From Octopus vulgaris (Eukaryota), in assembly GCA_951406725.2 (NCBI GenBank), contig OX597814.1, positions 159,836,001 through 159,900,000 of the forward strand: DNA of 64,000 nt. The letters are read 5' to 3'. The position numbers were made by a program, and so were the translations under genes. This document shows, in pieces, positions 8,765-61,384 of this stretch. Within the stretch, counting starts at the first letter, position 1. Every line of letters begins with the position of its first letter. The notes under the pieces were generated by a model that saw only the letters and a program-made list of their open reading frames with translations, did no database searches and was not told where the DNA came from.

Positions 8765-8860
8765 GTATGCTATTTGGATTCCAGTTTTTAAGATATTTAC
8801 ATTTGTATTTATTTGCTTATTTGGGATGGTTGTTGCTTAATTCCATGTCAGCCTTAATTA

Positions 8861-11897: not shown

Positions 11898-12247
11898 AGC
11901 AGCAGCAGTAGTGGCCTTCTGAAATTTTGCTGTGTTCTTACCCTAGTTAATATATTTTTGGAGCAACTACTTTCCCTGCTAATTCCATCTTCTGGGTAAC
12001 AAAAGCTCTCTCTCTGTGACCTTCATAACTTGATCCAGTTGTTTGATTCCTTTATAATTTCCTCTCTCTAAGACATTATCTTCTTTGCCTTTGTAGCAGT
12101 TTACAATGGTGCCACTGCATTAGTAATTGGGTATGACATCTTCCTGTACAGTTTGACTAATTATCCAGATGCTAATCATGTATCCTACCTCATAAAATAT
12201 TTTGAGCATCTTTATGACTAGCTAAACCCACAGCTTCCCCTCTCTTC

Positions 12248-12512
12248 ATCATCATCATCATCATCGTTTAGCGTCCGTTTTCCATGCTAGCATGGGTTGG
12301 ACGGTTCTACTGGGGTCTGTGAAGCCAGAAGGCTTCATCAGGCCCAATCAAAATCTGGCAGTGTTTCTACGGCTGGATGCCCTTCCTAACGCCAACCACT
12401 CCGTGAGTGTAGTGGGTGCTTTTTACGTGCCACCCGCACTGGTGCCAGACAAAGCTGGCAAACGGCCACGAACGGATGGTGCTTTTTATGTGCCACCGGC
12501 ACGAGGGCCAGG
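12248..12512 (-). mobile_element. (GAT)n-tailed RTE-3'-end-type repeat; other copies about 7297-7525, 22121-22360, 24531-25050, 34490-34700, 62325-62397 (-) and 32130-32355, 33690-33950, 36075-36372, 39657-39708, 42320-42700, 58865-59120 (+)
   Basis: Terminal AACGGACGCTAAACGATGATGAT is identical to the tail of the RTE at 46833-46865. Confidence 0.85.
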
Positions 12513-12926
12513 CGAGCACGTTCTTAATTGCTTTATCTAACATGCTACTGTCAACTTAAATTGCTTGTCTCACCATAGGGTGAACATGAGGTAGCCCTTG
12601 TATATTGTATACATTCTCCACATTTTGTGATAACATCAGCCTTTTATGATAACACTTCTGTACAACTTTCTTGTCTTCTATACTGATGGTGAGTATGTCT
12701 CCATCGTCCAAATACATTTCTCACTTTTGATATCTCAGTTTTTTCTCACACATCGTCTTGCAATCTTGAACTCTTTATACCTTTGTTCTTCACATTGCAG
12801 GACCTGCACAAATCTCTTCCTTTATACTTCACTCTAAGCCAAGCCTACCTATCTTCTAGCTGTCCCTCAAGCTATTTGATAATGCTTCCTACTGATGGAT
12901 GTAAAAATAAACATATAAAAAATATA

Positions 12927-13320
12927 TCTTTATATATAAAAGAGAGGTTGTGTGCTGTCTGTCTCCTACGATTTAGATTCCTAACTACTCCCACATTTTG
13001 CGGTGCAGTTTAACCAAAACCTGGTATCTTATAGTCATGATTCATATCGAGCCCTTCTGGGTACTAGCGTGCATCTATGATGAGTCTACGATTTAAAAAA
13101 AATTTACCATCAATTTTTCACATTTTTAATGCATTTTTAGCATATATAAGGGAAGTAACTCTCTAAAAATTTATTATTAAATCTCAGAACATAAAAAGCT
13201 ACAGTAACACCCATCCTTTGTGGTTAGCCATATTGAGATGGCTATTATACTTTACATCTCTAAAAATGCTTATATAGTTATTTCCCTTACAAACCCGAGC
13301 AATGCCGGGTGATACTGCTA

Positions 13321-13321
<1 letters not shown>
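12927..13321 (+). mobile_element. Non-autonomous Helitron (395 bp)
   Basis: A|TC 5' end (TCTTTATATATAAAA), subterminal hairpin CCCGAGCAATGCCGGG (13294-13309), CTAG|T 3' end, no TSD. Confidence 0.8.
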
Positions 13322-13366
<45 letters not shown>

Positions 13367-13509
13367 TGACCAGCTACTGACATAAACAATAAAAAACAGA
13401 AACCATGAAACGGGTAGAAGCGAAGCTCGAAAAGACTTGGGAAATGATTTTCTTAGACTGGCCAGACTTTATTGTGTTCTCATCAGTTGTATTTTCCTTT
13501 CTTCTACAG

Positions 13510-13592
13510 GACAAGGATTTGGATGAAAGCATTGATAAAGATCGGCTGTACCGTATACTAAAAGGCCATGGAGAGTATCCTGAGAAATACAG
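13510..13592 (+). CDS. TBC1D31: TBC1D31 exon (TBC start): DKDLDESIDKDRLYRILKGHGEYPEKY
   Basis: ctacAG / GTtaga, 83 nt. Confidence 0.92.
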
Positions 13593-14148
13593 GTTAGAGA
13601 TTTGGAATATTTGATTGAAGAGTAATTAAACTTTAGATAAACATTATGTGTTAATGCTATTTCCTGCTAAATCCAACAGTATATATTAGTTTTTGTTTTT
13701 GATTTAGTCGGAAGTGCAGTGCTCATAACCTTTGTTGGGGTATCTGAGTCAAGAAGGATGAAGTGAAAAAGTTGTCTTCACACCAGAGACTTGGCCTAAC
13801 TGCATGTAACAGTGATCTCTATTAAAGGCATCCAAAAGCAAGGTGGTGACTCCAAATTCAATGATGGATTAAGTCTGCTACTCAGTAACAAGAATGTCTC
13901 CTCCAACTGACTTCCACATAGTTTCCGTCTATCACATTTCACTTATAAAGCTTTGGTTGACTCAAGGCTATGACAAGAGACACCCAAGGTGTCACGATGA
14001 TAGGATTGGACCTAAAACTTCATAGTTTCAAAATGAACTTCTTAATCTTACAGTCTTAACAGAAATCTAAATCTAAATTAAACATTTTAATTTCTACTTT
14101 TGATAATATTTATTAGGTTACAAACTTTTGTCATGTTGTTTTATACAG

Positions 14149-14295
14149 ATTTTTCATCTGGAGACAATTGCTGAAATTGCCTGAGAACCACACAGCTTAT
14201 GCTGCTCTTGTTGACAAAGGGAACCACTCATCATTTATCACTTTGCAAGAGTATTATCCAGTCAAGAGTCAAAGACTGTTTAGATTATTGCAGAG
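14149..14295 (+). CDS. TBC1D31: TBC1D31 exon (TBC): FFIWRQLLKLPENHTAYAALVDKGNHSSFITLQEYYPVKSQRLFRLLQ
   Basis: atacAG / GTaata, 147 nt. Confidence 0.94.
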
Positions 14296-14704
14296 GTAAT
14301 ATTCTTGTACATTTAAACATTTTTCTATTTGAAAAAACAGGGACTATTTCAGTCATCTCAGCAAGAGAAAATCTGCCTTAATACAACTCTAGGTGACCCA
14401 TGCCAGCATGAAAAAATGGACATTAAAATGATAATGATGGTGATGATGATGATATGTGTGTATGTGTGTGTAGGGAGGCTATATTCAACTAGTTTAATAA
14501 ATGGTATTATATCAAAAACTGTAACTTAGCCGTTCAGTGTATGTATTAGTGTGTATTTATATATGTGTGCATATATCTCTTCTCTTTTTAATCATTCAAA
14601 TTAAGTTCTATGTATGTGTGGGTTTTGAGTGAGTGAGAGAAAGAGAGAGAGAGAGATAAGGAACTGACTAAAATACGTACTGGTGTTGATATAATTGACT
14701 AAAA

Positions 14705-14930
14705 GGCAGTGAGCTGGCAGAAGCATTAGCACGCCGGGCGAAATGCTTAGCGGTATTTCGTCTGCCATTACGTTCTGAGTTCAAATTCTGCTGGGCCCAC
14801 TTTGCCTTTCATCCTTTCGGGGTCAATTAAATAAGTACCACTTATGCACTGGGTCGATATAATCGACTTAATCCGTTTGTCTGTCCTTGTTTGTCCCCTC
14901 TATGTTTAGCCCCTTGTGGGCAGTAAAGAA
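14705..14930 (+). mobile_element. SINE family A (Deu/Nin-like GCCTTTCATCCTTTCGGGGTC domain) with 16-bp TSD
   Basis: ATAT(A/G)ATTGACTAAAA at 14689-14704 and 14931-14946; B-box-like GAGTTCAAATTC. Other copies about 812-1022, 18131-18345, 34777-34977 (+) and 6895-7295, 10030-10470, 39808-40026, 42700-42865 (-). Confidence 0.85.
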
Positions 14931-15895
14931 ATATGATTGACTAAAACCCTTCAAAACCGTAACCCATCATGGTTGCTATTTCTGTATCTGAAACCATTAA
15001 AACAAGTGTCAGTAGTGTTATGGACTTAGTTTTAATTTTAATATCCAATTCCATGACTCTGTTATGGTTTTCTACACGACTTCTAAATTTTTCATTCTTC
15101 CTATGTTTATCAATTTTCTTTTTGTAATGTATATTTTAAAACAGAAGAAAAGCTTACAAAACAAACCTTGTCATAAAGCAAGGAGTTTTTATTCTACAGT
15201 TATATACATTGAACCTCCAAGCTGACCTTCTGTTCATGTGGATTGTAAATAATACCACTACAACCCAATTTGTGTCAATGTGAAGACAAACATATACACA
15301 AATGCACACGCAAGCACACACATGCACACACACACACACACACATGCATGCAACAGGTTCCATTATAGTTTCCATCTACTAAGTTTCGCTCACAAAACAT
15401 TGGTCAATCCAGGGTTATAGTCAAAGTGAAAGCAAATAACCTAGGGGTTTGGGTATTCATCTTGTGATCCTAAAGTCATGAGTTTGATTTCAGGTGGTAC
15501 ATTTTGTTCTTCAGCAAGACACTTTATTTTATATTGCTCCAGTTCACTCAGTTGGAAAAAATGAGTAGTACCTGTATTTCAAAGGGCCAGCCTTGTCACA
15601 CTCTGTGTCATGCCGAATTCCCCTGAGAACTACTTAAAGGGTACACGTGTTTGTAGAGTGCTCAGCCAGTTGCACGTTAATTGGCTGTTCCATTGATCAG
15701 ATCAGCTGGAACCCTTGTCACCATAACCAACAGACTGCCAGTTATAGTTAAAAACATTTGCATAAGTGCCACATTGTGGTTAAGTAGTGAATGTCTTATC
15801 CACACATCCATGCCTATGTCTACATTTGAGCTTTAAAATCTAATTTATGCCAATGCTAATGAATTGGTTAGAGTGTAACTTTTGTTTCTTTGTAG

Positions 15896-16029
15896 GGTTC
15901 TGTCAGCTTTAGCCCATTGGTCTCCAATTTTAGCTGAAACCAAATATTTACCTGCTCTGGTGTTTCCATTCCTAAAAGTGTTTTACCAAAATCATTTATG
16001 TTGTTTTGAGATAGTTGCCACCTTCATCA
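15896..16029 (+). CDS. TBC1D31: TBC1D31 exon (TBC): VLSALAHWSPILAETKYLPALVFPFLKVFYQNHLCCFEIVATFI
   Basis: ttgtAG / GTaagt, 134 nt. Confidence 0.94.
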
Positions 16030-16123
16030 GTAAGTTAATACTTTTCTCTGATAATCTTTGTTAAATAATTATTTCTTTATTTCCAAAAACTGTTTATAAT
16101 GAAACCATCATATGATTGTATTA

Positions 16124-17410
16124 AATAATAATAATGAAATTATTGTATACAGTGCTCAGGTGCACCACAACTTGTCAGAAAGTGCATATAAAGTACATGC
16201 AGTAATGTAAAAATGTCTGGAAAGCGAACAATGTATGAGTCAGATACATGCTTGTGTATGTAAGGAGGGGAGAAAATCAGGTGTAGTGTTGGCGAATCTC
16301 AGAAAGCATGGAAGTTTTGAAGGATGCAGTGCTCCGACAACTAACAACTGATGCCGGCAGTTTGTTCCATGCTTCAGCAACTCTTAGCATGAAAAAATGT
16401 TTCCTGAAGTCATGGGAGCTGTGCTGTTTTCTGACTTTGTAAATATGTCTACGGGTGTTAGATGGGTGGAGTTTGAAAAGGTGCTCAGAGTTATTGTTTG
16501 TACGATGGTTGATAATTTTATGGGTGTCTGCCAAGTCAGCTGCCAGATGTTGGAGTTTCAATGTGTCCATGCCCAGGGAAGTAAGGCGTTCAGGATATGG
16601 CAAATGCCTGATGGAGGGTATTCTTTTGGTTGCACGTTGCTGAACAGCTTCCAGACGATTGATATCCTGGGCAAGATAGGGGTTCCAGACCGGTGATGCA
16701 AACTCCAAGTGAGGTCTTACCATAGCTATATAAAGCTGCAGATAGATAGCCGGAGAGCGGCTCACAAAGGATTTAGTGAGTGATGCCAAGACACCCTCAG
16801 CCTTCTTGACAATTTTAGCGATGTGCTTTGTCCAACGCAAATCACTGTCGACAATAACACCCAGGTCACGTTCACATGAAGACTTTTTGAGACTAGTGTT
16901 GTGGAGGGAGTAGGTGGATGCTGGGTTTCTCCTCCCAAAATGCATGGTGGTACATTTGTCCACAGCCAGCTTGAGTTGCCAGTCCATGATCCACTGCTGC
17001 ATTGTGTCCAGATCTGCTTGCAATAGAGATCTATAGTGTACAGGATTTGACCTCTTTATTTCGAGGTACAGCTTGATGTCATCTGCATATTTCAGCACTG
17101 TGGCATTCTTTAAGTTGGCATCTATGTCATTAAATATGCAACAAATAAAAGGAGGCCAAGAATAGATCCCTGTGGTACACCAGATGTCATCTCATAGGGC
17201 GAAGAGTGCTGACCTAGAACTGTGACAACCTCTTTTCGGCCGAAAATAAAAGACTTCAACCAGTTATAGAGTTCGTCTCTTACACCCAACGCAGAAAGCT
17301 TCACCATAAGTCTTTTGTGTGGCACAGAGTTAAAAGCCTTAGCAAAGTCCAGGTAAACAACATCCACCCAGGATCCGTGATCAGTGATTTGGGTAACGTC
17401 CTCAAGAAAG
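16124..17410 (-). mobile_element. CR1-clade LINE, 5'-truncated, RT frameshifted near 17133
   Basis: YLDFAKAFNSVPH, GVPQGSILG, YADD, RPHLEFASPVWNP, RKHFF..RV...WNKLP across ORFs 17122..17367 and 16277..17098; (ATT)n tail. Confidence 0.93.
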
Positions 17411-19071
17411 ATTGTAATAACTAATTTCTATACTTTGAGGTTTTACACCTTGACAGTAGACTTAACCAGACATCCTGTAAATAGGTGAGGGTTCTCTCTG
17501 TAGCAAAAGACTTCATAAATTATTGAAGCCAAGGTTAAGATTTTTATAATATTGATTTATTTCATTAATATATCTATTATTTTTCTGCCACTTTGCCAGG
17601 AGCCTTTTATGGAATCCACAATATTTGAAACAGTCTAACCTTCTCTCTGCTCTGAAGTTAACTTCTTCCTGTTGGTCTTGGAGGCCCTAAAAAGGGTCAT
17701 GGACATGACCTTTTATCCTCTGATTAAGACATAAAAAAGAAAAATACAAAAACAAGTCACTTACAGAGGGACTTATTAAGCTAAGCGCTAGACAAAATGT
17801 TTTACAGCAATTATTTTAAACTTTTCAAGTTTGTATTCAAGTTCCCTGGGACTAACTTTGACTTTCATCTGTCTGGCTTTCATAAAATAAATACCAATAA
17901 TGCATTATTGACATCCATTCATTTGCTATTATAATATTATATAAAAAATTATTTTAAAAAACTGCAAATAATTGTACAAAATAAATCAATAATTATAGAG
18001 TTATCAACTTTAAAATTACTACAGTTCAACTGAAGTCTGTCATTTATTACAGTATATCATATGATGTTACATCCCTAGCCTGTCTAGTTATATATTGTTG
18101 AACAAACTATTAATATTATAACAATAACAAAGGCAGCAAGCTGGCAGAATCATTAGTATAGCAGGCGAAATACTTAGAAGCATTTCATCTGTCTTCACAT
18201 TCTGAGTTCAAATTCTGCCATGGCCAACTTTGCCTTTCATCATTTAGGTATCGATAAAATAAGTACCTGTTGAACAGTGAGGGTCGATGTAATCGACTTA
18301 ACCCTTTCCCTGAAATTGCTGGCCTTGTGCCAAAATTTGAAACCAAAATTATGACATTTACATATTCTATGATCATAGGAATATTAGGCATATTTATGCA
18401 CCATTTGTTTGTAAGCTTATCTTGTAAAGTAATTCATTCATTACTAGTGAAAAATAATTCTAAAAATGTCTATTTCTATAGCAAGAGCCATAGAATACTG
18501 TTAAATTTCCAGAAAGCCATATCTGTTACTTAACCTTGATTCTTTGTTATGACTGTTTAATTTACATAATTAATCCCATCGATACGGGACTACACTTGCC
18601 TCCATGATATCCTACTGTTTGGTTGTTTATTTAAGAAGCAGTGTATCTCTCTGGTATATAATACATCTGTTTTTGCTATTCAGTTTGATCATAAATTATC
18701 AAAAGCTCCAATAAAGATGAGTAAGGTGAACTCAGCCACTGCATAATAATCTCACTGATAAAAATGGACTATAGTATTTTGTTATTGTTGTTGTTTTGCT
18801 GTAAGTACATCCTAAGACCAGCGGCTTCTCAACTGTGGCCAACCTATGTTATCAAAACACTTAGAACTATATTATGCTATATTTCCTTCCTATTTTAAGA
18901 TATTCAAGTGTGATTTGAAGAAGCATTTCTAGCAGATCAAAGAACCACAGAGCCCCACCTCCACCACGACGTTCTCTTTTCTGTGTATTTTGCGTTTGCC
19001 GAACAAAGTTTAAAATTAATGTAATTTCATTAAGAAAAATATTTATTGTTATTAATTTCTTTATTTTCAAG

Positions 19072-19205
19072 TTAACTGGTGTGGTCATTGGTTTGAATAT
19101 TTCCCTAATCCTCCAATTAATATTCTTGGAATGATTGAGAACGTCCTTTCACGACATGATCCCACTCTCTTGAGGCATCTGATTAAATACAAAGTCACAT
19201 CTCAG
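19072..19205 (+). CDS. TBC1D31: TBC1D31 exon (TBC): NWCGHWFEYFPNPPINILGMIENVLSRHDPTLLRHLIKYKVTSQ
   Basis: ttttcaAG / GTatat, 134 nt. Confidence 0.94.
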
Positions 19206-19664
19206 GTATATATATATCATCATTATCATCTACATCTGTGTGTGTGTGCACGCATATGTATGTATATCAGTTGTCAGTTTTCCCTTGTATTGCATTTAAT
19301 AATTAATTTCTGTATACACACTGTCAGTTTTCCAAACTATACATATGATGTTGGGCTGCCTACATGCACACCACCAACTGACCTTTCTCTCACTGCCCAC
19401 AAACAATCAAATCTGGGTCTGAGAATAGTTCAGGATTTTGCTATATTACTTCCTACTGCAGCAAACCATGAACTACATCTTCCTCTGACCAGTCTTGAAA
19501 GTTCTTTGGAAAGGTCATGATCTCTGCTCCTACCTCTCTGACTTAACCCATTGAAAAAAGAATTAATAAATTACAGTACCCTACTTTTATGCTTTTATTT
19601 GCAAAAAGCCTTCTAGAATGTAGCATATGTAACTGAGGTAGTATCCAATTAAAATAGCCCTCTA

Positions 19665-19923
19665 CAACCGTGGCTAAAAGTTTTGAACATTTAAAAAAAA
19701 ATTTAAATTGTTATGCCCAAATACAATTCAATTCAAATATGTACAATGTAGAGATATACTTACCTAATAATTGATCCAATGGTTCAATATCTAGAAGAAA
19801 ATATTTTCAGACCTTTGTTCCAAACTTTTGGCCAAGTAATGATACAAATTCAATACAGCTTTGAGCATTTAGTACAAAAATTCTAATTTTCACACCTATG
19901 TTCCAAACTTTTGGCCACAAGTG
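19665..19923. mobile_element. Tc1-type MITE (259 bp) with TA TSD
   Basis: TIRs CAACCGTGGCTAAAAGTTTTGAACAT / ATGTTCCAAACTTTTGGCCACAAGTG; an internal copy of the TIR core at 19816-19834. Confidence 0.8.
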
Positions 19924-20857
19924 TATGTTTCCTACTTAATGTATATACATCATTGCTAGGCCAGTTACATATCTTATGGACATGCTGTGTTAAACGGTAA
20001 TACATATTGAATAGAGGAGAAAAATTGCCCTAACATCAGCCCAGTGAGAACACCAGATGCGTTTCAAACTTTTTGAAACTTTGCAATGATGCATACACAC
20101 AACCAATGATGTGCCCAGTGGAGAATTCATTACCTCTGATATATGAAACAATGAATAAAATATATACTTATGTTGCCTGGTTGAGAATTCATTGCCCACA
20201 TTAATATGAAGTGTTATCTCAGGACAAATTTTGAAATAACAGGCTTATCAATAATGTACATATATTATGATACATATCTTTTATTTTTTATGTTTTACTT
20301 CTTTCATTCATTGGACTGTAACCATGCTGGGGCACTGCAGTACATATCAACCCCAACATTAATTTTTTTAAAAAGTCTGGTGCTTATTTTATTGGTCTTT
20401 TTTGCTGAACCACTAAGTTATGGAGGCATAAACAAACCAATACTGGCTGTTAAGCAGTGGTGGGACACAAACACAATGACACATACATGCATATGTACAC
20501 ACACACAAACAACAGGCTATGGGCTTCTTTCAGTTTCCATCTACCAAATCCACTCACAAGGCTTTGGTCAGCTTAGGGCTATAACAGAAGACATTTGCCC
20601 AAGGTGCCACATAGTGGAACTGAACCTAGAACTATGCTACTGGGAAGCAAACTTCTAATCCCATGGCCACTCTTGCACCTATTGATGGCCATTCTTGAAA
20701 AAAATCTTTGCAACAAATCAGGGATACAAAAAATGTACAGAAGACTATAATAATAGGAGGAGGTGTGTAGTTAAGAAGTTAACTTTACAACCATATGGTT
20801 TCAGGGGGTTCAATCCCTTTGTATGGCATCATGAATGTGTTTTTCTAAAGCCTTGGG

Positions 20858-21340
20858 ATCATCATCATCATCATTGTTCGACCGTGGTCGAGACAATGGA
20901 ATTTACTATGCTGCGCCAGACTTCACGGTCCATCATGGCATTGCGGAGGTCCTGTCGCTGGATGCCTGTATCCCTGGAGATTACATCAGTGTTGCGAGTA
21001 GATGGCTTCCAGAGGAGAAGAGTAGAAATTGCCTCGTTTTCAGCTCTACAACAATGTCCAGCAAACTGGACTCTCCTACCTTTCACAAGAGATGACACAG
21101 GTGGTAGTTTCCCAAATATTTGCATTTTGGTTGGATGATGCTTCCACGAGAGATTTTGAGCTCTCATAAGGAGGCGAGTGTAGGTTCCATCCAACCGCCT
21201 CTCAAGCTTCTTTGATAACGTCCAGGTTTCTGAGCCATATAGTAGAATTGGTTTGACTGTGGCTTTGAAGATTTCAAGTTTGAAGTCTCTACTTAGATTT
21301 GATGACCAGATCTTATGCATGTCATGGGATGACCAGTACC
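20858..21340 (-). mobile_element. Second RTE-type LINE 3' fragment nested in a family-B SINE (about 20755-21590)
   Basis: KLEIFKATVKPILLYGSETWTLSKKLERRLDGTYTRLLM...QFAGHCCR; the stop codon runs into the (TGA)n tail; possible TSD CCTTG(G/C)GA. Confidence 0.85.
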
Positions 21341-22374
21341 TTGCGAGCGAAACTAGTGGACTGGAACTGTGCAGAAGGCCATCACATGTGTTTGTGTGTG
21401 TGCATGTGTTCATATGTATTTGTGTTTCTGTCACTGCTTGACAAACACTGTTTTTATTCTATGACCTAGCAGTTCAACAAATAGTGGATGATAAGTGATA
21501 GATTTATAAATAAGAGCTGGTTGAATAAAATCCTTCTTAGCATTGCTCCAGTATGACCACTGTCCAATGACTGAAATAAGTAAAGGAATAAAATGAAGAA
21601 CATTTTATTTTTATTTTATTCATTTCCTCTGTGTTTATGTTGTTATTTCTTTTTTTTATATTTATTGAAATTTAAATCTTATTAGATGTTTTCAAATTAG
21701 CTTCCAGAACTAAAACTGTGTGGCCAAATTGAAATATTGTAAGTTTCTATGGCAACAAAATATGTAAACCAAACAGTATTATAACATTTGTAACTAATGC
21801 TATGAATCCCAACATATTGAGTGATCAGTTGTAAGAAGGCCTTTTGTTTTGTTTTGTTTTTTTTTTGCTTTTGCATGAGTTATCTATCCTATTAAAAATG
21901 GGACATTTTTGCTGTCTCAACATCATGTGATCCAAGCAGTTAATATATTCATTATTTGTTAAGTCAAGAGAAGAGTGCTCAGATAAATTTTTAGGCTTCA
22001 TCAACGAGGAGGGGAGATAACTGACTGAAGTTAGTTTTTTTTTTTGTTACCATATTATAGCTATAAGGAAAACATGGACTAAAAAGTTCTAAAAGAGAGC
22101 AGTTATTGGGAGAAAATGGGATCATCATCATTATCATCATCATCATTTATCGTCTGTTTTCCACACAGGCATTGGTTGGACGATTTGAGAGGAGCTGTCC
22201 AGTTGGAGAGCTGCATCAGGCTCCAATTGTTTGTTTTAACATGGTTTCTATGGCTGGATGTCCTTCCTAATGCCAGCCACTTTACAGAATGGACTGGGTG
22301 CTCCTTATGTAGAACCAGCATAAGTGTTTTATACATGGCACCAGCACTGGTGCTTTATATATAGAACTGGTGTT

Positions 22375-22776
22375 GAGCTGGCAGAATCGTTAGCACACCG
22401 GGCGAAATGCTTAGCGGTATTTCGTCTTCCGCTACGTTCTGAGTACAAATTCCGCTGAAGTCGACTTTGCCTTTCATCCTTTTGGGGTCAATTAAATAAG
22501 TACCAGTTACACACTGGGGTCGATATAATCGACTTAATCCGTTTGTTTGTCCTCTCTGTGTTTAGCCCCTTGTGGGTAGTAAAGAAATAGGTATTTCATC
22601 TTCCGCTACGTTCTGAGTTCAAATTCCGCTGAGGTCAACTTTTCCTTTCATCCTTTCGGGGTCGATTAAATAAGTACCAGTTATGCACTGGGGATCGATA
22701 TAATTGATTTAATCCGTTTGTCTCTCCTTGTTTGTCCCCTCTGTGTGTAGTCCCTTGTGGGCAATAAAGAAATAAG
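22375..22776 (+). mobile_element. SINE family A with one head and two tandem bodies, nested in a (GAT)n-tailed repeat
   Basis: The body restarts at GGTATTTC (about 22590); GAACTGG on both flanks. Confidence 0.85.
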
Positions 22777-23354
22777 GAACTGGCACAGGTTCTTTTTACT
22801 TGGCACCAGCACAGGTGCTTTTTGTGTGGCACTGGCATAAAAGTTTAATTTAAGATTAAAAATATAAGAGTAGATGAGGTTCATAAATGTACTAACAAAT
22901 ATACAGAAATGAAGTGTGTGTGTGTGTATGTGTTAAGTCTTGAATAAGGGTAAGGGGTATAGACCCTCTTCAGTCATGAATGACCATGAGATTGCAGCTA
23001 GAAAGTTCCCCTCTGTAACACAAGTCCAGGCAAGGTTGTTTATGGAAGACCAGCAATTGCCCATGCATACCAGCCTCCCTCTTCACACCAATGATCTTAT
23101 TCAAGAGAAAGACAAAGGCAGATACAACTTGGCACCAGTGACATTGCAATTCATTTCTACAGCTGAGTGAACTGGAGCAACATGAAATAAAGCATCTTGC
23201 TTAAGACACAACACAGCCTGGTCCAGGAATTGAACTCACTGCCTCATAATTGAGCCCAACACTTTAACCACTGAGTCATGTGCCTTGGATACTTTTGGTA
23301 TTTTTAAAAGTTTAAAAAAACTAGATTTTCTTTAATAGAATAGACAGAAGATGA

Positions 23355-23565
23355 AGGCATCGAGCTGGCAGAAACGTTAGCACGCTGGGGAGATGCTTAT
23401 CGGTAGTTTGTCTGTCTTTACGTTCTGAGTTCAAATTCCACCGAGGTCAACTTTGCCTTTCATCCTTTTGAAGTCGGTAAATTAAGTACCAGTTGCGTAC
23501 TGAGGTCGATCTAATAGACTGGCCCCCTCCCCCAAAATTTCTGGTCTTATGCCTAAAGTAGAAAA
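23355..23565 (+). mobile_element. SINE family A with 17-bp TSD
   Basis: GAATAGACAGAAGATGA at 23338-23354 and 23566-23582. Confidence 0.9.
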
Positions 23566-24191
23566 GAATAGACAGAAGATGACAGCTGATAAATATCTGT
23601 CAGATGTTATTGACAATTGGCTTTCTTATTAAGTTCAGTTAATAATATTCTACTAGCTTAAGATTCCTTAACTGCTTACAAAAGACATAAGATGGCAAAT
23701 CTTTACCGATATCCTTTCTACAATTTAAATATCGAAGATATAGTGATAATAAAGAAAATGTATAAATTTGTACAGATTTTGTGTGTATGTATGTGTGAAT
23801 GTATGTGTGTATTTGTGCATATCATTACTACTGTTTTAACATCCACTTTTCCATGCCTGCATGGATTGGGCAGAATTTGTTGATGCAGATTTTCTATGGT
23901 CAGATGCCTGTCCTGTTGCCAGCCCTCACCTATTTTCAAGGGAGATTGGAAATGAAGCATACCACTCGTATGACAATGACAGTCCTTTATAATTATCACA
24001 CAATATCAAGACAAGGAGACCCTAACACACACAAACACACATAACCGACTTCTTTTCAGTTTTCTTCTACCAGATCAACTCACAAGGCTCAGGGTCATAG
24101 CAGAAAACACATGCCCAAGGTGCCATGCTGTAGAACTGAACCTTAAACCATGGATTGGGAAGTGAACTTCTTAACCACACAGCCACAGCTG

Positions 24192-24525
24192 TATATATAT
24201 ATAATCACATCACAGTATTGACCATACCTCAGATGCTGTTATACACTGCTGATCACAATGTGCTTCCAATTCTATCTTGATTGCATCATTCTTTTCCATC
24301 TTGACCTAAATTTTTGAACTAAACCATCTTCCCATTGTCATGGAGGTCTTCCAAGTGGCCTTTTCCAATTTCTTAAATACCACTTGGAAACTGCATGAGT
24401 CCACATGTCTGTGAACCTTGCAACATGTCCAGCCCAGCAGAATTTGTGCTTTCATCGCTCTGTGATCACATCATTCATCCCGCTCCGTTCTCAAATTATC
24501 TCATTTCAAATGTGCTCTCTTAATG
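24192..24525 (-). mobile_element. Third RTE-type LINE 3' fragment with (TA)n tail
   Basis: Minus strand KFCWAGHVARFTDMWTHAVSKWYLRNWKRPLGRPP*QWED, a short 3' UTR, then (TA)n. Confidence 0.75.
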
Positions 24526-25191
24526 ATATTATCATCATCATCATTTAACGTCCTTTTTCCATGCCAGCATAGGTTGGACGGTTTTGACTGAGGGCTGGCA
24601 ACCAGATGGCTGCACCAGGCTCCAGTCTTGATCTGGCAGAGTTTCTACAGCTGGATGCCCTTCCTAACGCCAACCACTTCGAGAGTGTAGTGGGTGCTTT
24701 TTACGTGCCATCTGCACGAGGGCCAGTCAGGCGGTACTGGCAATGACCTCGCTCGAATCTTTTTACATGTGCCACCGACACAGGTGCCAGTGAAGCGACG
24801 TTGGTAACGATCATGCTCGAATAGTTTTACGTGCCATGGGTACGGAAGCCAGTTGGCTGCTCTGGCAACAATCACAACGATCACGCTCAGATGGTGTTCT
24901 TGGCACCCTACTAGCACAGGCATAAGTGCCAGTAAGGCGATGCTGGTAACGATCATACTCGAATAGCCACTCTGTCAACGATCACACTCGTATGGTGCTC
25001 TTTGCACCCCGCTAGCACGGATGCCAGTCATCGAAATGATTTTGATTTTGATTATATATGATATATATTTATATGTATCTACCAATGTATATTCTTTCTT
25101 TATTTTTTTAGTTTGTTTTGGCCATCACAGCTGAGGCTATGCTCAAGCATCATCTTTTTCTAATATAAATCTTCTTTTCTTATATCTTTAG

Positions 25192-25371
25192 ATTTATGCT
25201 TGGCCGCTTTTAGAAAGTTTGTTCACTGAAGTTTTAACCAAGAATGAATGGTTACGTCTTTGGGATCATGTTTTCAGCAACCATCCTGCATTTTTGTTAA
25301 TAGTTGTCGTAGCTTATGTCATCGGTGCTAGAGCTGCTTTGCTGAAGTGTGTCGAACTTGATGACTTCAAG
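25192..25371 (+). CDS. TBC1D31: TBC1D31 exon (TBC): IYAWPLLESLFTEVLTKNEWLRLWDHVFSNHPAFLLIVVVAYVIGARAALLKCVELDDFK
   Basis: ctttAG / GTaaat, 180 nt, RLWD TBC motif. Confidence 0.95.
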
Positions 25372-25442
25372 GTAAATATTCAATTTATATTTTCACCATG
25401 CCACAATTGGAATAATAAACTAATGGTATTTTATATGTTTGC

Positions 25443-25670
25443 GGCGAGCTGGCAGAAACGTTAGCACGCCAGGCGAAATGCTTTGCAATATTTCATCTGC
25501 CGCTACGTTCTGAGTTCAAATTCCACTGAGGTCGACTTTGCCTTTTATCCTTTCGGGGTCGATTAAATAAGTGCCAGTCATGCACTGGGGTCGATATAAT
25601 CGACTTAATCCATTTGTCTGTCCTTGTTTGTCCTCTCTGTGTTTAGCCTTTTGTGGGTAGTAAAGAAATA
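25443..25670 (+). mobile_element. SINE family A with 18-bp TSD
   Basis: GGTATTTTATATGTTTGC at 25425-25442 and 25671-25688. Confidence 0.9.
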
Positions 25671-30101: not shown

Positions 30102-30579
30102 ATAATATAATAATGAAATTATTGTATACAGTGCTCAGGTGCACCACAACTTGTCAAAAGTGTGTATAAAGCATATGCAGTAATGTACAAATGTCTGGGA
30201 AGTGAACAGTGTATGAGTCAGATACATGCTTGTGTGTGTATGGAGGGGAGAAAATCTGATGCCGGCAGTTTGTTCTATGCTTTAGCAACTCTTAGCGTGA
30301 GAAAATGTTTCCGAAAGACATGAGAGCTGTGCTGTTTTCTGACTTTGTAAACATGTCCACGGGTGTTAGACAGGTGGAGTTTGAAAAGGTGCTCAGAGTT
30401 ATTGTTAGTAAGATGGTTAATAATTTTATGGGAGTCTGCCAAGTCAGCTGCCAGACGTCGGAGTTTCAATGTATCCATGCCCAGAGAAGTAAGGCATTCA
30501 GAATATGGCAAATGCCTGATTGAAGGTATTATCTTGGTTGCACGTCGCTGAATGGTTTCCAGACGATTAATATCTCAAG
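30102..30579 (-). mobile_element. CR1 LINE 3' fragment, same family as 16124-17410, with an internal deletion of about 70 bp
   Basis: SLGMDTLKLRRLAADLAD...RGHVYKVRKQHSSH and a near-identical 3' UTR. Confidence 0.9.
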
Positions 30580-43760: not shown

Positions 43761-44402
43761 GAAATATGCCCTGTGCATTACATGTGACATGCAGAACAGG
43801 CAAAGGGTCAAACAACTAATGGACCCCACTGCCCTCTTGTTATTTGCTGCTCCTTTGTGAGCTAACAACTGCCTGAAGTTGATACTGCTACAAATAAACA
43901 GAACAAATGAATGAGCATGCCTTTCTATGTGGAGCCTCATCATACAGAACAGGTCTTAAATTGTGGGCATTGATTTTTAGTAAAGAATGAAAAGTTGGAT
44001 TAGGGTGTAAATATTTAACCTTTGACAGATCTCACAATTTTCTTTCATCTTCCTTTGAGATCTCACAATCATAACAACAAAAACTTGCTACCAAAGACTG
44101 GCCTTCCTCATCAACATTAGAATGTACTTCAGCTCTAATTAGATGTTGACTCTCTACAAAGCTCAAGTATAAACAACAATGGAGTACTGTTGTCAGGTTG
44201 CTACTCTACACATTTCCTAGATCACTTCAAAAGGAAACAGATTATTTGGCTGCATCTCACTCACCATCACTCTACAACCACTAATCCACAGATATTCTCT
44301 GTGTGTGTTCATTTCCATTTCACTTCAAGTATATCAGTCATACCTTAATAAAAGTATTAATGTCGCACACTAATTTATTTTAGTATATACGTATGTATTA
44401 TC

Positions 44403-46865
44403 GACGACAAATATGGAGAAGAAGGATCTGGAAGCTTAAAGATCCTGCAAATGGACAGAGATTTAGGGACATATTACTTGAAACCTCTGACGAAGTAGAA
44501 GGGGATAGAGCATCACAGGGGGTAGAAGACAGCTGGACGTTTCTAAGGGACAACCTGCTGAGAGCCACTGACCAGATCTGTGGCTGGTGCAAAGTCCCCT
44601 CTCGACCTAGAATAACGTGGTGGTGGAACAATATTGTAGACAGGGCTATTAGAGAAAAGAGACAGGCTTGGAAGGTCTGGAAAAATGGGGGTAGCAGGGA
44701 ATTGTATCAGACTGCCAAAAGAGAAGCTAGGAGACAGGTTTATTTAGCCAGAGGGGAAGCAGATAAGAAAAAATTTGCCAATGTTCTGCGCTGTGAGGAC
44801 CAAAGACTGGAGGTGTTTCGTGTTGCAAGACAGTGTGTGAGAGAGAATCGTGATGTGGTAGGAGAGAAGTGTGTTCGCATGGAAGATGGTTCACTTGCGC
44901 TAAATGAGGATGCAAAGAGAGAGGTTTGGAGATGCCACTATGAAAGGTTGCTGAATGAAGAAAATGAATGGGATAAAGAGAGTCTGCCGAATGTTGACCC
45001 AACAGAGGGACCAGCTATCCGAGTTGATAGTTCCGTGGTAGCTAAGGCAATTAGAAGCATGAAGACAGGGAAAGCCCCAGGCCCATCAGGAATCACTGCA
45101 GAGATGCTCAAAATGTCTGGTAGTGTCGGCTATAGCCTAGTCACCCGTATAGTTAATCAGGTGATACACAAAGGGGTCATACCCAATGACTGGTGTAGCA
45201 GTATAATAGTCAACTGCTACAAAGGTAAAGGTGATGCCCTAGATACAAATAACTACAGAGGTATCAAGCTGTTGGACCAGGTGATGAAGGTTACGGAGAG
45301 GGTCATAGCCCAACTAATTAGAGAGAGAGTTAGTTTAGATGAGATGCAGTTTGGGTTTGTGCCAGGGAAAAGTACTACTGATGCTATATTCCTGGTAAGG
45401 CAGCTGCAGGAGAAATACCTAGCCAAAGATAAGCCCCTGTACCTGGCTTTTGTTGACATGGAGAAAGCCTTCGACAGGGTCCCCCGATCCCTTATCTGGT
45501 GGGCAATGAGGAAACTAGGGATAGATGAATGGTTAGTGAGAGCTGTGCGGGCCATGTATAGGGACGCCGCTAGTAGGGTGAGGGTTGGAAATGAGTACAG
45601 TGAAGAATTCCGGGTAGAGGTAGGAGTCCACCAAGACTCAGTACTCAGCCCCCTCCTATTTATCATAGTCCTCCAGGCAATAACGGAGGAATTCAAGACA
45701 GGATACCCTTGGGAGCTCCTCTATGCTGATGACCTTGCTCTAATTGCTGAGTCGCTATCAGAACTGGAGGAGAAGTTTCAGGTGTGGAAACAAGGATTAG
45801 TATCGAAGGGCCTCAGAGTCAATCTAGCTAAAACCAAAGTCGTAATCAGTAGGAAGGTAGACAAATCACAAACACCTTCAGGTAGATGGCCCTGCTCGAT
45901 CTGTAGAAAAGGTGTAGGTAGAAACTCTATAAGATGCACCAAGTGTAAGCTATGGACACATAAGAGATGCAGCAATGTCAAAGGAAGGCTAACTAGGAAG
46001 ATGGTTTTTGTATGTGGCAGATGCTCAGGAACAATAAACACTGAAAATGCTCTGAGACCAACTTCCGTCACTTTCCAGGGAGAAAAACTAGAAATAGTTG
46101 ATAGTTTCCGTTACCTAGGTGACCAAGTCAGCAGCGGGGGCGGGTGTGCTGAAAGTGTAACTGCTAGAGTAAGAATAGCTTGGGCAAAGTTCAGAGAGCT
46201 CTTACCTCTGCTGGTGACAAAAGGCCTCTCGCACAGAGTGAAAGGCAGACTGTATGATGCGTGTGTACGAACAGCCATGCTACATGGCAGTGAAACATGG
46301 GCCGTGACTGCTGAGGATATGCGTAAGCTCGCTAGAAATGAAGCCAGTATGCTCCGATGGATGTGTAATGCCGGTACTCACACTCGGCAGAGTGTAAGTA
46401 CCTTGAGAGAAAAGCTGGACCTAAGAAGCATCAGTTGTGGTGTGCAAGAGAGACGTTTGCGCTGGTATGGTCATGTGGCGAGAATGGATGAAGATAGTTG
46501 TGTGAAAAAGTGCCACACCCTAGCGGTTGAGGGAACCTGTGGAAGAGGCAGACCCAGGAAAACCTGGGACGAGGTGGTGAAGCACGACCTTCGAACTTTA
46601 GGTCTCACTGAGGAAATGACTAGAGACCGAGACCTCTGGAAGTGTGCTGTGCGCGAGAAGACCCGGCAGGACAAGTGAGTCCATAACCCGTGGCCTTCTA
46701 CATAGGATGGAGCCAGCCTACGTATGCATACCTTCCTTCTTGGGACACAAAACTCTACTTGTGAAGACGTGTTGAGGCAAGTGAGGATCAGAATCGAAAT
46801 CGATCAATGGAAATTGCGGATGTGCTACCAGTAACGGACGCTAAACGATGATGATGATGATGATG
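44403..46865 (+). mobile_element. 5'-truncated RTE-clade LINE (2.46 kb), uninterrupted RT frame to TGA at 46676-46678, (GAT)n tail
   Basis: KAPGPSGI, NYRGIKLL, QFGF, FVDMEKAFDRV, YADD (45722-45733), FRYLG, RLRWYGHV, GRGRPRKTW; no APE domain; possible TSD ATTATC (44397-44402, 46866-46871). Confidence 0.95.
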
Positions 46866-54281: not shown

Positions 54282-55506
54282 GTAAGAACACCTAACAAAA
54301 ACAAGCTATCAGAATATTTATTGACATTTATTAGAAAGTTAATTTACCGTATATATTCTTCTGTGAAAATATTGTTTTAATTTAATTTTAAATTTCCATG
54401 TTGACAGTTTCTATATTACTTACTGCCGGACAAAGTTTGCCAGGTGTATTAACGACACGCCTCCTTTACTCTTTCTACAACACTTCTCTAAATCTACAAA
54501 TGCGATCTATGTTTTTATTATATTTTAACCTGTTTATTATAATTTGATGCTACAAAATCCTTATATTTAACTTGTACGAAACTTTCATTTTCCTTGATAT
54601 CGACTTATAACTATCAATTCTCACTATGATTTCCATTGTTTATATTTCTCGACACTTATCAATCAATCAGTTAGGTGTTTTGATTATAGATCACAATTTA
54701 TTTATAATTCTGTTTATGTATTATAACAGAAACTATTTATTATTATTATTATTATTAAAGTTGCATTTAAAAATATAAAATTATCGTTAGTGTTATTAGT
54801 ACAGATTATCGTTATAAACTGAGTGACAAAGGTGGAGTTGGGACGGCAGAACTACAAACAACATGCTTTATTAGTTTCGGTTTATTATTTGTCTGTTCAA
54901 ATCTCGCCCAAATCGACTTTGTTTTTCATCCCATGGGTGTTCACATAATCAGTATTTGACATGTTCCGTTCAACCCCTGTGCCTTCTGTCGATATAAGAA
55001 AATTACTATCATTTGAGAATAACATGAATGCCACACACTGTCATACTCTGTTCTGCAAATCTTGCGTATCTATGGAAGAAATAATTATTACTGGCTGTTA
55101 ATGTTTAGCTCCTGGTCAATCTGATTGAGCAGATCTATGATCAAAGGCATTTCATTCACCCCATCCGTTTCTTTGCCATTGTGTATCTTGGATTAATGTA
55201 GTTCAAGGTTCACAGTATAATGCTTCCTCTCGTTTTCAGTACTTTTACGGTATGATTTGGGAGAGTTTGGCCTGCTTTTTCTAAAGGTTTCAACGACACT
55301 GTTGGCTCTGTTTTAGAATTGTTCTAAGGTCCAACCAGTGTGCTTATACTGTTGGAAAAGGCATGAACACCAAGGGGTCCTTTTCCCTAAAACCCTGGGG
55401 CTTTATGTAATTAAACATTATCATTAATTAATTTGCTAATAAACACTAAACATTCACGTCATATGCAACTAAGTCAAACCTATTTGTTGTTTATTTACTT
55501 ATTTAG

Positions 55507-55580
55507 ATTAAAACAGTTCGCCAAGGTATTGGACACTGAAGAAATTGATATGGAAAGCTTACGCAAATTATGTTTCAGTG
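55507..55580 (+). CDS. TBC1D13: Second coding exon of TBC1D13-like gene: (R)LKQFAKVLDTEEIDMESLRKLCFS(G)
   Basis: atttAG / GTaaat, 74 nt; resembles recalled TBC1D13 N-terminus (RIADFQDVL...LEKLRELSFSG). Only 31 codons in total; a TBC1D22-type identity is not fully excluded. No third exon found in the window. Confidence 0.75.
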
Positions 55581-58500
55581 GTAAATATAAATTTTTCCGA
55601 AATTTCTCTCATTTTTTATAATTGGTTTCATATCTATCGCATATTGTTTTGCATTGCTTGTGAAAACGTGCATTGTTTTTATATTTGAAACTTGTAAAAT
55701 ACGGACTTCTCTAGTAACTTCATTAATTACATGTGGCGGAGATTTACAATATCCTTCAGCGGCTGCTTTCAGAATTGAAATTAAAAAAAATTCCATTTCA
55801 GATTATTATAAATGTCGAAATATATTTAGGTTGTGTATTTTGTGTTTTTTGTTATCTCACAATGGTTGCTGCTATCGTCTTGTTTTCTGATATCGGTTTG
55901 TTATCATCATTTCGAACGATTGTGGTCATCTACATATAAACGTAAATGAACCGCTGAAAGTGTGTTTCGTTTTGTATCTCTCAACGTAAATGACATTATT
56001 TATTATGTTTTGTTTTGTTTCCTTTTTGACCTCTGCTAATCTAGAATTTAAAAATTAATGGAAAGGATCCTAGACATAGATTTAGTCTCAAAAACAAATC
56101 AAAACAAAAATCTGCGTTATGTTTAATTATCGATTACAAACATGGTGTTTGGAGATAAAAAAAAAAAAAACTTCGTTTTTACGTTCATTTCTAGGAATGT
56201 AATTTTTTAATTAAATATCATCTCTTAGTTGAATAACGGATTTTTACTTTAAACTTGTTGGTGAAAGTTTGAGATGCTAATTACTGTTGTCAGTTAATCA
56301 AAGTAAACATTAATGTCTTATGTAATTCAGCTATTAGATGGGCTTCAGTTATTAATTTATTAGATGACCGGTTGAACAATCGTAAATTGAGAAAAAAATG
56401 GACTTTGTTATAAACCTGAAGATTAATTTATTTAAAATCTGTGAAGACTGCCAACTGGAAGGCAAATCTTAATAGGCAATTTCATCATAGGAAACTTGAT
56501 GCTTTTCTTTGGTCGGGTATAAAAACTTTGTTTTAGAATTCTTTTGGTGTATAAATCTCGACTTTTTTTTTGTGGTTGGTGTATGAGATGCAGTTCACAT
56601 ATTTCGTTATTATTTTTTTATTTTTTGTAATAAATCAGAATTAACCTAATGAGGACGTTTTTCAGCACTCTTTCACTGAAGTAACCATCTTCCCTGCGCA
56701 CCTCACTACCTCGACATACACACTTGCAAAAGACAAAAAAAAAAAAAAAGACAAAAAATCAGCTATTCATAATCTGTTGGTGTGCTGATTAAATACACGT
56801 TTTTAAGGTTTCCAGTTACATTGTAATTCTTGTGGCAGACTTTCTTTGTAAATTCTCTGATTATCATCCCACTCTGCTTCGCTTAAATTACCACGGCATT
56901 TTGTTTGACAGATGTTCTAAACCATTACTTTTAAAGCTTCATTCGAAATTTAATTTACATGTACAAACAAGTGCTTTATACAGTTTATTTTCCACCTGAG
57001 ACTGTGTCATTTACACATTATATCAATCAAGCTGTTTCTTTATTCGTAAGATAGTCTTATATTTTCTTTCTCTAATACCTTGTTTAGAAGGGTGCAAAGT
57101 ATAATGTTTCTGTCTAATATGGACATATGACATATCTCATTGATAAAGAAATTATGAATTGTCTTACAGAAGTATACTTATATCATCTTCAATGATGTCA
57201 TGTCAAGAATCATCATCGTTGATTTCATGCCTTTACCATGCTAGTATGTGTTGGACGAGACTTACTGGAATAATATTATCCTATGTCTTGATGCTCTCTC
57301 TATTGTTAACCCTTATTTGTTTTTCAATTATTTGGGGCACAAATGTTTTGTGCTACAAAGAAGTTGCCCGTTTAAAATCTTTTTTTTTTTACACTTTTTC
57401 CCTCATTTTGGATATTTGTTTATACCCGTAACTTGAACACTCATTTTCTGGTTCAAAGTTAGCAGAATCAAAAAGCTACCAGGAATTCAGTACTCAAGTT
57501 CAGCTTTGGCTTAACTTGATTCCACAATGAAATCACATTTATTAGTGTAATGATGATGATGTTGATGGATTGCTCAAAGGCATCTGCCATTTTGTTGAAA
57601 ACTATTGATATTATAGTTAATGATGCAAGTGTAGCTGTGTGGTAAGCACTTTGCTTCCCACCCACATTGTTCCAGGTTCAGTCTTCCTGTGTGGTACTTT
57701 GAGCAAGTATCTTCTACTGTAGCTTCAGGCTGAGCAAAGCTTTGTGGGTGAATTTGGTAGACAGTCAAAAACTGAAAGAAGCCCATCATATATGTATACA
57801 TGTATAGATATATGTGTGGTGTGTCTTCGTGTCTGTCCCCCACCACTGCTTGACAACTGGTGTTGGTGTGTTTATGTCCCCATAACATAGCAGTTCAGCA
57901 AAAGAGACCAATAGAATAAGTACTGGGGGGTCGATTCATTTGACTAAAATTCTTCAAGGCAGTGCCCCAGCATGACCACAGTCTAAAGACTGAAACAAGT
58001 AGAAGATAAAAAGATATGTGTGTGTATGTCGGCGCTTGTCTAGACATCACATGAGAGTTGTAAACGAGCATCCTTGTTATACAAGCAAGATTGTTTGTTT
58101 CCAGTTTCTGTGGGGAACATTTAACCTTGCTTGGAAATAAGTCAAAGATAGCTACTAAGAAGGGCAGCTCTAGGAAACCTGTCCCAGCAAATTCCCATCT
58201 GATCCATGCAAGCTTGGAAACTAGACAATTAGTGATGATGACAGTGAATGTTAAAATATTTTCAGCTTAGTTTATAAAATTATAAAATTGTTGTTCTACA
58301 TAATTTGCAAACGATAAATCATAGGTTTGTCGGTTCTTGATGATTGCAACTCAATATAATGATGTCATGTTGTCAGTTATAATTTTCTTTACCATGGTGT
58401 CACATAATAGATATTTGTTTTCATGGTAAGCAGCAAGTATGGTAGGCAATAATCTCTTTTACTAACAAAGATTAAGTTATGGAGTAAAAAATATTTTTGC

Positions 58501-59544: not shown

Positions 59545-60581
59545 CAGATTGTGCATATAAAACTACTCAGTATGTGTAGTAAAATTTATTCAAAACAATT
59601 TTGCACTTTTTACTTTTGGTTTTGTGTTCCAATTTTTCACAGTGTCAGTGAACATGTAAATCATCATCATTATCATTTTACACCTATTTTTCCATGCTTG
59701 CGTGAAGTTGATGGATCTTCTCCAGCCCAGCATCTTGTTATAGTCTTCTTTGTGAGCCTTAGCCATGCCTACCTTACACAGGTTCCTTCCATTCAAACGC
59801 ACATAACATGCACACACATGTTTCTGCATTTTGTTGATAATCACTCTGATTAATCATCATCACTATCTTAAAATCCATTTTTCCATGCTTGCATGGGTTG
59901 GACAGTTTGAAGCAGATTTTCTTCAGCTAGGTACCCAATCTGTCATCAACCCTCACTTGTTTCCAAACAAGGTAATATTTCTACTTGGTTACAACATGTT
60001 TTCACAGACTATTGAAAATGAATGACACAACTTATATGGTAGTGACACTCTTTACAACTATCACATGATGACTCACACACACACATACAAGGTTCTTTCA
60101 GTTTCTGTTGCTCAGATCCACTCACATGTTTTTGGTCAGTCTGGACAACAGCAAAAGACTCTAGTGTCACACAATGAGACTGAATTGGACACCATGTGGT
60201 TAGGAAACAAACTTCTAATCATGTATTAATTATTAGTCATGTTTTGATGCTTCTTTCTGTATATTGACTTTGTCATATCAAGTTGACCTGGAATCCTGAA
60301 TGACTTGGTAGATTTTTGCCTTTCACCTTCTGAATTCAACAAAATAAGTACTTGTCTCAAAGTACTGGTTTTGATATAACTGACTATAATCTTTGAGGGC
60401 AGTGACCTAGCATGAGGATACCTTGCTAGGTCACTGAAACCAGTAAAAGAATTAAAGAATAAACAACTTGCTTAATTTGAAATGTAAGAGAATAATTATA
60501 AATATAGATAATGATATGATATTGACCTTTTTCTTTTGCTTTGACTACACATAAATATAAAAGTAGACACATACATTTTAT

Positions 60582-60834
60582 ACAGTTCTATATTTAAGAG
60601 ATGAGGAATTATGTACATTATTGACATTTGACGGAGATTTGTCCTCATCTTGTTTGTTGTTATAATGTTTCGGCTGATATACCCTCAGCCTTCTTCAGGT
60701 GTCTTGGGGAAATTTCGAACATGGTTCGAAATTTCCCCCAAAACACCTGAAGAAGGCTGGAGGGTATATCAGCCGAAACATTATGATAACAACAAACAAG
60801 CTGAGAACAAATATCCGCCAAATGTAAATAATGT
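60582..60834. mobile_element. Foldback element with two inverted hammerhead-like cores (PLE terminal-repeat-derived), 13-bp TSD
   Basis: Palindrome 60611-60838 centred on 60721-60723; ACAC-CTGAAGA-A-GGCTG..CAGCC-GAAAC on both strands; ACATACATTTTAT at 60569-60581 and 60835-60847. Confidence 0.85.
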
Positions 60835-60844
60835 ACATACATTT

Positions 60845-60883
<39 letters not shown>

Positions 60884-60884
<1 letters not shown>

Positions 60885-61170
60885 GAGGCACAATGGCCTA
60901 GTGGTTAGGGCAGCGAACTCGCGGTCGTAGGATCGCGGTTTCGATTCCCAGACCGGGCATTGTGTGTGTTTATTGAGCAAAAACACCTTAAAAGCTCCGG
61001 CAGGGGGTGGTGATCCCTGCTGTACTCTTTCACCACTCTTTCTCTCACTCTTTCTTCTGTTGGCCTGCTTGCTTAGCCAGCGGGGTGGCGTCATTCGAAG
61101 GCTAAAACAATGCGAATGCATTGTGACCAGCGATGTGTAGCAACATCTGATGGTCTGGTCGGTCATGTGA
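60884..61170 (+). mobile_element. SINE family C with alternative 3' tail, in a (TA)n tract
   Basis: Same head as 11519-11897 (TGGCCTAGTGG, GGTTTCGATTCC), different last ~110 bp. Confidence 0.85.
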
Positions 61171-61384
61171 TATATATATATACATACATATATGTACAAA
61201 GTGCCAACACATGGGACTCATGGTCATTGAGTCACTCTGTACATCCTGACAATTATTTGGAAAAAAATTTTTATGTTTATGTACATCCACACACACACTT
61301 CTTATAGAAGTGTATATACTGGATGTTTAGGCTAAATTTAACAGTTTGCATAAAAGAAAAAGAGAACTCAATATCCCATCCAGT

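Follow-up and report, generated by a model that had tools for sequence, protein, structure and literature searches.

The palindromic insert at 60569-60847 of the window (the whole stretch of Octopus vulgaris DNA that was analysed, 64 kb) is, with a probability of roughly 0.85, one old and heavily 5'-truncated insertion of an abundant Penelope-like element (PLE) family, in which the 3' end of the family is present as two short copies placed head to head. Its Penelope-like membership rests on terminal anatomy, as no reverse transcriptase or GIY-YIG gene is tied to the family. The insert has a 30-40-bp type of tail on one side only and comes from a family with two ends; it contains an inverted 5'-truncated copy joined head to head, both arms being the 3' end of the family; and a hammerhead motif lies near this 3' end (pLTR). 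Below we describe the insert, the repeat family behind its arms, the state of its hammerhead motifs and the ways in which its inverted structure may have arisen.

The palindrome lies within an exact 13-bp direct repeat

An earlier note on this DNA had reported a palindrome inside a perfect 13-bp repeat, and we recovered both as described (Table 1). The two arms are 90.5% identical over 116 columns, with nine places of difference (six substitutions and three indels), and enclose the loop ATG (60721-60723). The hairpin is predicted to fold at -161.6 kcal/mol on the plus strand (z -22) and at -174.7 kcal/mol on the minus strand (z -28); on each strand, none of 100 shuffles folded as well. The insert is asymmetric, as ~30 nt at its left end have no counterpart at the right. 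When the RNA of a single arm was folded, this tail was predicted to pair with the arm in a short stem, and the whole-arm fold that includes this pairing was not significant (z -1.38). Within the 64-kb window, a search for further copies of the arms gave nothing beyond weak matches of ≤25 nt.

The 13-bp direct repeat encloses an interior of 253 bp and has no third copy within the 64-kb window. Among 4000 random pairs of 30-nt stretches with equal spacing, three had 13 or more letters in common. The repeat is likely to be a target-site duplication, judging from its presence in the filled site; contigs aligned to the left flank and the insert showed no empty allele. It overlaps the ends of the repeat family by 2 nt on the left and by 5 nt on the right, so that only 6 of its 13 letters belong to the flank in both copies.

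Table 1. The insertion, its hammerhead motifs and the adjoining microsatellite (positions in the window)
Feature	Position	Strand	Remark
Left copy of the 13-bp direct repeat	60569-60581	+	Last 2 nt are the outer end of the family; loose ends of the family at 60580/60581/60583
~30-nt 'tail', left arm only	60580-60609	-	Predicted 9-bp stem with the arm in single-arm RNA
Left arm, 5'-truncated copy of the family 3' end	60610-60720	-	Sense on the minus strand
Decayed minimal hammerhead	60660-60703	-	Core 60698-60668; helix III ACAU; stem I pairs at 1 of the first 4 positions
Inversion junction GAAC-ATG-GTTC	60717-60727	.	The family has a native 5-bp inverted repeat here and normally runs into the element body
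Right arm, second 5'-truncated copy of the family 3' end, without tail	60724-60839	+	Ends at the second terminus of the family, 60839
Decayed minimal hammerhead	60742-60787	+	Core 60747-60778; helix III ACAU; stem I pairs at 2 of the first 4 positions
Right copy of the 13-bp direct repeat	60835-60847	+	First 5 nt are the end of the right arm
(TA)18 microsatellite	60845-60881	.	Directly adjoins the insertion

The arms belong to an abundant repeat family with two ends

To study the family, we aligned contigs of public runs to the locus, using 6 of the 24 listed runs (X1, X3, X6, X10, X11 and X12). Between 11,779 and 22,146 contigs per run matched the arms at 80% likeness. In X1 the summed depth, which is not a copy number, was 1.6-2.1 million on several arm bins compared to ~21 on a unique flank bin. 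The arms thus belong to a very abundant repeat family. On the left, contigs of the family come loose before 60580, 60581 and 60583 (328, 199 and 176 contigs in X1, respectively), with heterogeneous, AT-rich flanks, and this outer end at 60580-60583 was listed for all four of four runs. The inner end is marked by 66 X10 contigs that leave the family behind 60839, and it appeared in one of four runs among the best-supported rows listed. In element coordinates the two ends of the family are 30 nt apart, which is the signature of a Penelope 'tail': the left arm stops at the outer end and includes the tail, and the right arm stops at the inner end without it.

At the centre of the palindrome, the family continues past the turn into body sequence, in four of four runs in each of two contig alignments. 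Its letters at the turn form the native inverted repeat, GAACC and GGTTC with two letters between them, and, compared with a clean join there, the junction of this insert has one base substituted and another missing.

We then compared the letters of the arms with the majority letters of the family, which were taken per position and not phased on single molecules. In four of four runs the majority was T at 60751 (72-80% of depth), G at 60780 (65-78%), G at 60783 (95-99%), T at 60786 (94-98%) and G at 60742 (>92%). The majority motif consists of CUGAUGA, one extra A, a stem II closed by G-C, GAAA, a palindromic ACGU, a GUU triplet and a stem I of 5 bp. It therefore has the core of a minimal type I hammerhead, the extra nucleotide after position 9, G10.1-C11.1, the palindromic 15.2-16.2, an NUH triplet and a stem I in the range of 4-5 bp. 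The earlier note had guessed that the ancestral end carried a palindromic stem III and a paired stem I that have since eroded, and this end reappears when the majority letters at 60780, 60783, 60786 and 60742 are put in place (ACGU, GUU and five base pairs in stem I). The consensus of the family also bears out the guess in the two elements whose absence would have spoken against it, the triplet and the pairing of stem I. Minority letters at 60751 and at 60780 have similar shares (20-35% of depth, unphased), which may point to a subfamily whose helix III is not palindromic.

Searches for the parent gene started from the two arm reading frames. Compared with proteins, these frames gave no usable candidate for a PLE reverse transcriptase or GIY-YIG gene; the search covered 1.84 billion representatives and returned two matches, one to a repeat protein over 11 residues and the other to a protein with surface-protein domains, the queries being weak (at most 35-40 residues of decayed frames). 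The exact motif scan found no locus in viral contigs and, with two motifs, none in metagenome contigs. In prokaryote genomes it found one locus, which we rejected as a 20-nt chance match with unrelated flanks. No RNA run was listed as containing the locus. Run X11, which we guess to be RNA, contained contigs of the family, none of them across the junction among the matches listed; neither result is evidence on expression.

Contigs bearing three different organism labels contain the left junction between flank and element and show 0, 5 and 5 differences over 304 nt; together with the nine differences between the arms, this indicates that the insertion is old. Run X10 hardly covered the near left flank, if at all, which says nothing about presence or absence there.

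Both hammerhead motifs of this copy are decayed

We scanned both strands of the 64-kb window for CTGANGA followed by a stem of at least 4 bp and GAAA. The scan gave two cores only, at 60747 on the plus strand and at 60698 on the minus strand, and these are the same two loci that had been singled out before as minimal hammerheads. Their 5' ends are ~50 nt apart. Neither arm of this copy has the palindromic helix III together with a paired stem I: helix III reads ACAU on both. From the core outward, the first four positions of stem I are unpaired, paired, paired and unpaired on the plus arm and unpaired, paired, unpaired and unpaired on the minus arm, so that the first pair is broken on both. 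At the gathering score, Rfam gave no hammerhead match in the whole window, and none of the 30 weak matches in 60400-61200 was a hammerhead (they were generic hairpins below the gathering score).

Minimal hammerheads are reported to show no activity as monomers and weak activity as dimers (Cervera and de la Pena 2014, PMC4209133). Each strand of the insert carries one copy of the motif and no partner on the same strand for a dimer. Compared with the full hairpin, an isolated core is predicted to fold weakly (-8 to -10 kcal/mol). Cleavage is predicted to be absent because the pairing of helix III and stem I is lost, there is one motif per strand and the long hairpin would mask it; both motifs are most likely inactive and passengers in the insert. 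Read-through RNA from either direction would make the complementary (antisense) arm first and would then fold as the long hairpin. Masking of the ribozyme by such a hairpin, which the earlier note had raised as one outcome, is predicted from the folds of both strands for the case that the locus is transcribed. The note's other outcome, a ribozyme released from either strand, is not supported, as both cores lack the pairing of helix III and stem I and the single motif on each strand is of a type reported to need a dimer; the erosion that it assumed is seen in this copy.

Formation of the inverted ends

The enzymatic steps that we propose are all drawn from the anatomy of the insert and from the cited papers. 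The endonuclease of the element would make two cuts in an AT-rich target, one per strand and 13 nt from each other, and the 3' ends freed in this way would serve as primers for cDNA synthesis on the element RNA, one at each of the two start sites, by means of a 2-nt and a 5-nt microhomology, respectively. Both cDNAs would stop after ~115-140 nt and would join at the native inverted repeat, the sole place where cDNA ends of the same sequence can pair. We read the overlaps of 2 and 5 nt between the 13-mer and the family ends as microhomology at the two priming points. We favour two-ended target priming since each outer end of the insert falls on an end of the family, with microhomology there. 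Such events have a counterpart in vitro, where two reverse-transcription start sites bound the tail and both target strands are cut and extended; ribozyme mutants still insert in that system, in which the ribozyme is unneeded (Frangieh et al. 2024, PMC11167929). A point against our main reading is the length of the duplication: its 13 bp exceed the 8-10 bp reported for A. vaga (PMC3846280).

The alternative with an appreciable, if lesser, chance of being right is that one cDNA (or antisense RNA) snapped back at the native 5-bp inverted repeat, copied itself and joined the other target end by microhomology. It shares the Penelope-like origin and competes with the steps of the mechanism only, not with the identification. 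The turn does sit on the native inverted repeat, and self-priming has been proposed in print for palindromes of this kind (Arkhipova et al. 2013, PMC3846280); in the literature outside subscription journals, this 2013 proposal was the only one that we found for head-to-head PLE palindromes. In addition, the arms share letters that are in the minority in the family, namely A at core position 7 and A at 16.2. At least one of two rare stem I changes (1-6% of depth) is also common to both arms, as the left arm matches the right arm at this place except for 3 missing nt. Snap-back explains the junction and the shared variants as well as two-ended priming does. However, the right arm ends at the second terminus of the family (seen in X10), an outcome that follows from two-ended priming but is not required by snap-back. 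Shared letters would also result if two transcripts of a single source copy had been used, or through later arm-to-arm conversion. The simplest reading of the shared minority letters is one source copy with an already damaged hammerhead, the alternative being later conversion between the arms. The present data do not separate two-ended priming from snap-back self-priming.

It is a tentative and rather doubtful suggestion that the stub records how PLEs form their inverted ends, that is, by two-ended priming at microhomologies and a join at a self-complementary site, on a template whose hammerhead was already broken, so that ribozyme cleavage was dispensable in vivo. The turn points, the usage of the two ends and the variants shared by arms, collected across the abundant ends of the family, could decide between two-ended priming and self-priming. 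The family would be of moderate interest for testing how PLE inversions arise, and the locus adds a single clean observation on the origin of inverted ends and tails in these elements.

The palindrome does not appear to move as a unit

The insert had been proposed to be a 253-bp foldback that moves as a unit. The contigs do not support this, as the family runs into body sequence and few contigs turn, at single-copy depth. A stretch of 86 nt across the junction was matched by 1,819-2,525 contigs per DNA run. Among the 32 matches listed (6,404 more exist), six pieces reach well across the turn (records 3 and 4 of X1, 30 and 31 of X3, 18 and 19 of X12), with a depth of 13-55, which is single-copy, and with 2-7 differences; none of the matches listed spans the whole 86 nt. 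Other turn points among the matches listed have a depth of 17-34. At 60725 the depth was 283 (X1), 908 (X3) and 703 (X12) compared to 1.1-2.7 million on the left arm, and the value at 60725 would be an upper bound on contigs that cross the junction away from their ends. Short-read contigs may break at perfect hairpins, and such junctions are then under-reported; the depths thus speak against an amplified unit without proving its absence.

That a non-autonomous 253-bp foldback is spread as a unit by Penelope enzymes, with a ribozyme made from either strand, is, on these numbers, improbable. One insert framed by a direct repeat and the few other contigs that turn at about the same place in X1, X3 and X12 are what it would lead one to expect, but the depth and the differences of the turning contigs, a junction depth far below that of the left arm and the broken state of both hammerhead cores speak against it. 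One of the turning sequences is an observation in its own right: record 4 of X1 and record 31 of X3 (60697-60765) represent another, longer contig, found in two organisms, with the same turn, 7 differences and ~25 nt of left arm. This contig probably represents a separate palindrome with its turn at the same native inverted repeat.

We consider it very unlikely that the stub is kept as an intronic host regulatory hairpin, an editing substrate or a source of small RNAs. The strong fold predicted on both strands and the left junction common to three organism labels would fit such a role, but the arms have drifted at nine places, three of them indels, as expected without selection for pairing, and the intron was not confirmed by Pfam, by protein search or by the search for a later exon (see below). 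Least probable of all is a MITE or foldback DNA transposon with hammerhead-like sequence in its inverted repeats by chance, which would account for the long inverted repeat and the flanking direct repeat but not for ends that are asymmetric by 30 nt, a non-palindromic family that continues into a body, or a family majority that is a complete minimal hammerhead down to the extra nucleotide after position 9, G10.1-C11.1 and the palindromic 15.2-16.2. Terminal inverted repeats and an amplified unit of fixed length, which define that class, were not found, given the 30-nt asymmetry and the single-copy depth of the junction.

Comparison with known systems

PLE insertions have an optional tail of 30-40 bp at one end and often an inverted 5'-truncated copy (Craig et al. 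2021, PMC8557442), and inverted pLTRs, a 31-bp tail, target-site duplications of 8-10 bp and head-to-head palindromes are described by Arkhipova et al. (2013, PMC3846280). The locus resembles these endonuclease-positive insertions in its 5' truncation, the head-to-head inverted copy, the tail of ~30 nt, the likely target duplication and the AT-rich or microsatellite target (PMC3846280, PMC8557442). It differs from them in that it is extremely truncated and has no coding body and no direct partial tandem.

With Poseidon of Anolis (PAc; PMC11167929), the family shares two ends that bound a tail downstream of the hammerhead, and an AT-rich target. The distances are similar: measured from the beginning of stem II, the ends lie at ~85 and 115 nt in the family, compared to 111-118 nt into the ORF in PAc. 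PAc can prime in vitro without homology and its ORF starts at stem II, whereas the locus has no confirmed ORF and shows microhomology at both junctions.

The hammerheads correspond to the minimal type I hammerheads of metazoan PLEs (PMC4209133) in the core boxes, the extra nucleotide before stem II, G10.1-C11.1, the long stem II and the short stem I, and the family majority also in the palindromic 15.2-16.2. Unlike those, this copy has helix III and stem I broken on both arms, and no dimer partner on the same strand. Dual minimal hammerheads on opposite strands, 100-700 bp apart, were noted in Schistosoma (PMC4209133). Metazoan non-LTR retrozymes are likewise non-coding, carry a type I hammerhead and are probably moved by PLE enzymes (bioRxiv 10.64898/2026.07.22.740005). 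They are head-to-tail tandems with a hammerhead in each unit, whereas the locus is a single head-to-head pair with no other copy in the window, and we rejected its assignment to that class. PLEs are reported to be expanded and recently active in Octopus vulgaris (PMC13282606), and the supplement of PMC8557442 lists two Octopus Naiads with a (TA)n preference; two 14-nt motifs had no occurrence in the text of that supplement, as available.

Pairs of minimal hammerheads on opposite strands and head-to-head PLE palindromes with a one-sided tail have thus already been published (PMC4209133, PMC8557442 and PMC3846280). The single locus matters little, being the shortest form of a published pattern of Penelope-like insertion, with ribozymes predicted to be dead. 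Such stubs resemble MITEs or designed RNA switches, and the locus has some value as a warning.

Genomic surroundings

A 74-nt segment bounded by AG..GT lies at 55507-55580 on the plus strand. We take it to resemble an exon of TBC1D13. Pfam found no family in the frame of this segment, a protein search with the frame at 55478-55600 gave two candidates, neither of which was scored, and no later exon of the TBC1D13-like candidate was found within the 64-kb window. An intronic position of the insertion is plausible. Further upstream, exon-like frames at 8540-25461 (+) had weak Pfam matches to RabGAP-TBC (E 0.016 and 0.04) and to a WD40-type propeller (E 0.041), all below the cut-off; we assume that the plus-strand gene at ~8.5-25.5 kb is TBC1D31/WDR67-like.

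The near left flank has features of its own. A perfect 13-bp inverted repeat with an 11-nt loop lies at 60400-60436, 130 bp left of the insertion, and related contigs differ by small insertions at 60387-60390. The stretch at 60433-60470 reached a summed depth of 5,600-10,000 in X1, far above its neighbours, and is probably a fragment of another repeat. On the other side, the insertion is adjoined at 60882-61160 by a repeat between TA runs that we presume to be tRNA-SINE-like, and a similar copy lies near 11520-11800.

Other retroelement remains are present elsewhere in the window. Broken fragments of LINE-like reverse transcriptases lie on the minus strand at 16277-17427, 20871-21458 and 30275-30574. 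A stop-free frame of 764 amino acids at 44384-46678 (+) presumably encodes an RTE-type LINE reverse transcriptase, and a partial inverted copy of it, 86% alike, is located at 1-344.
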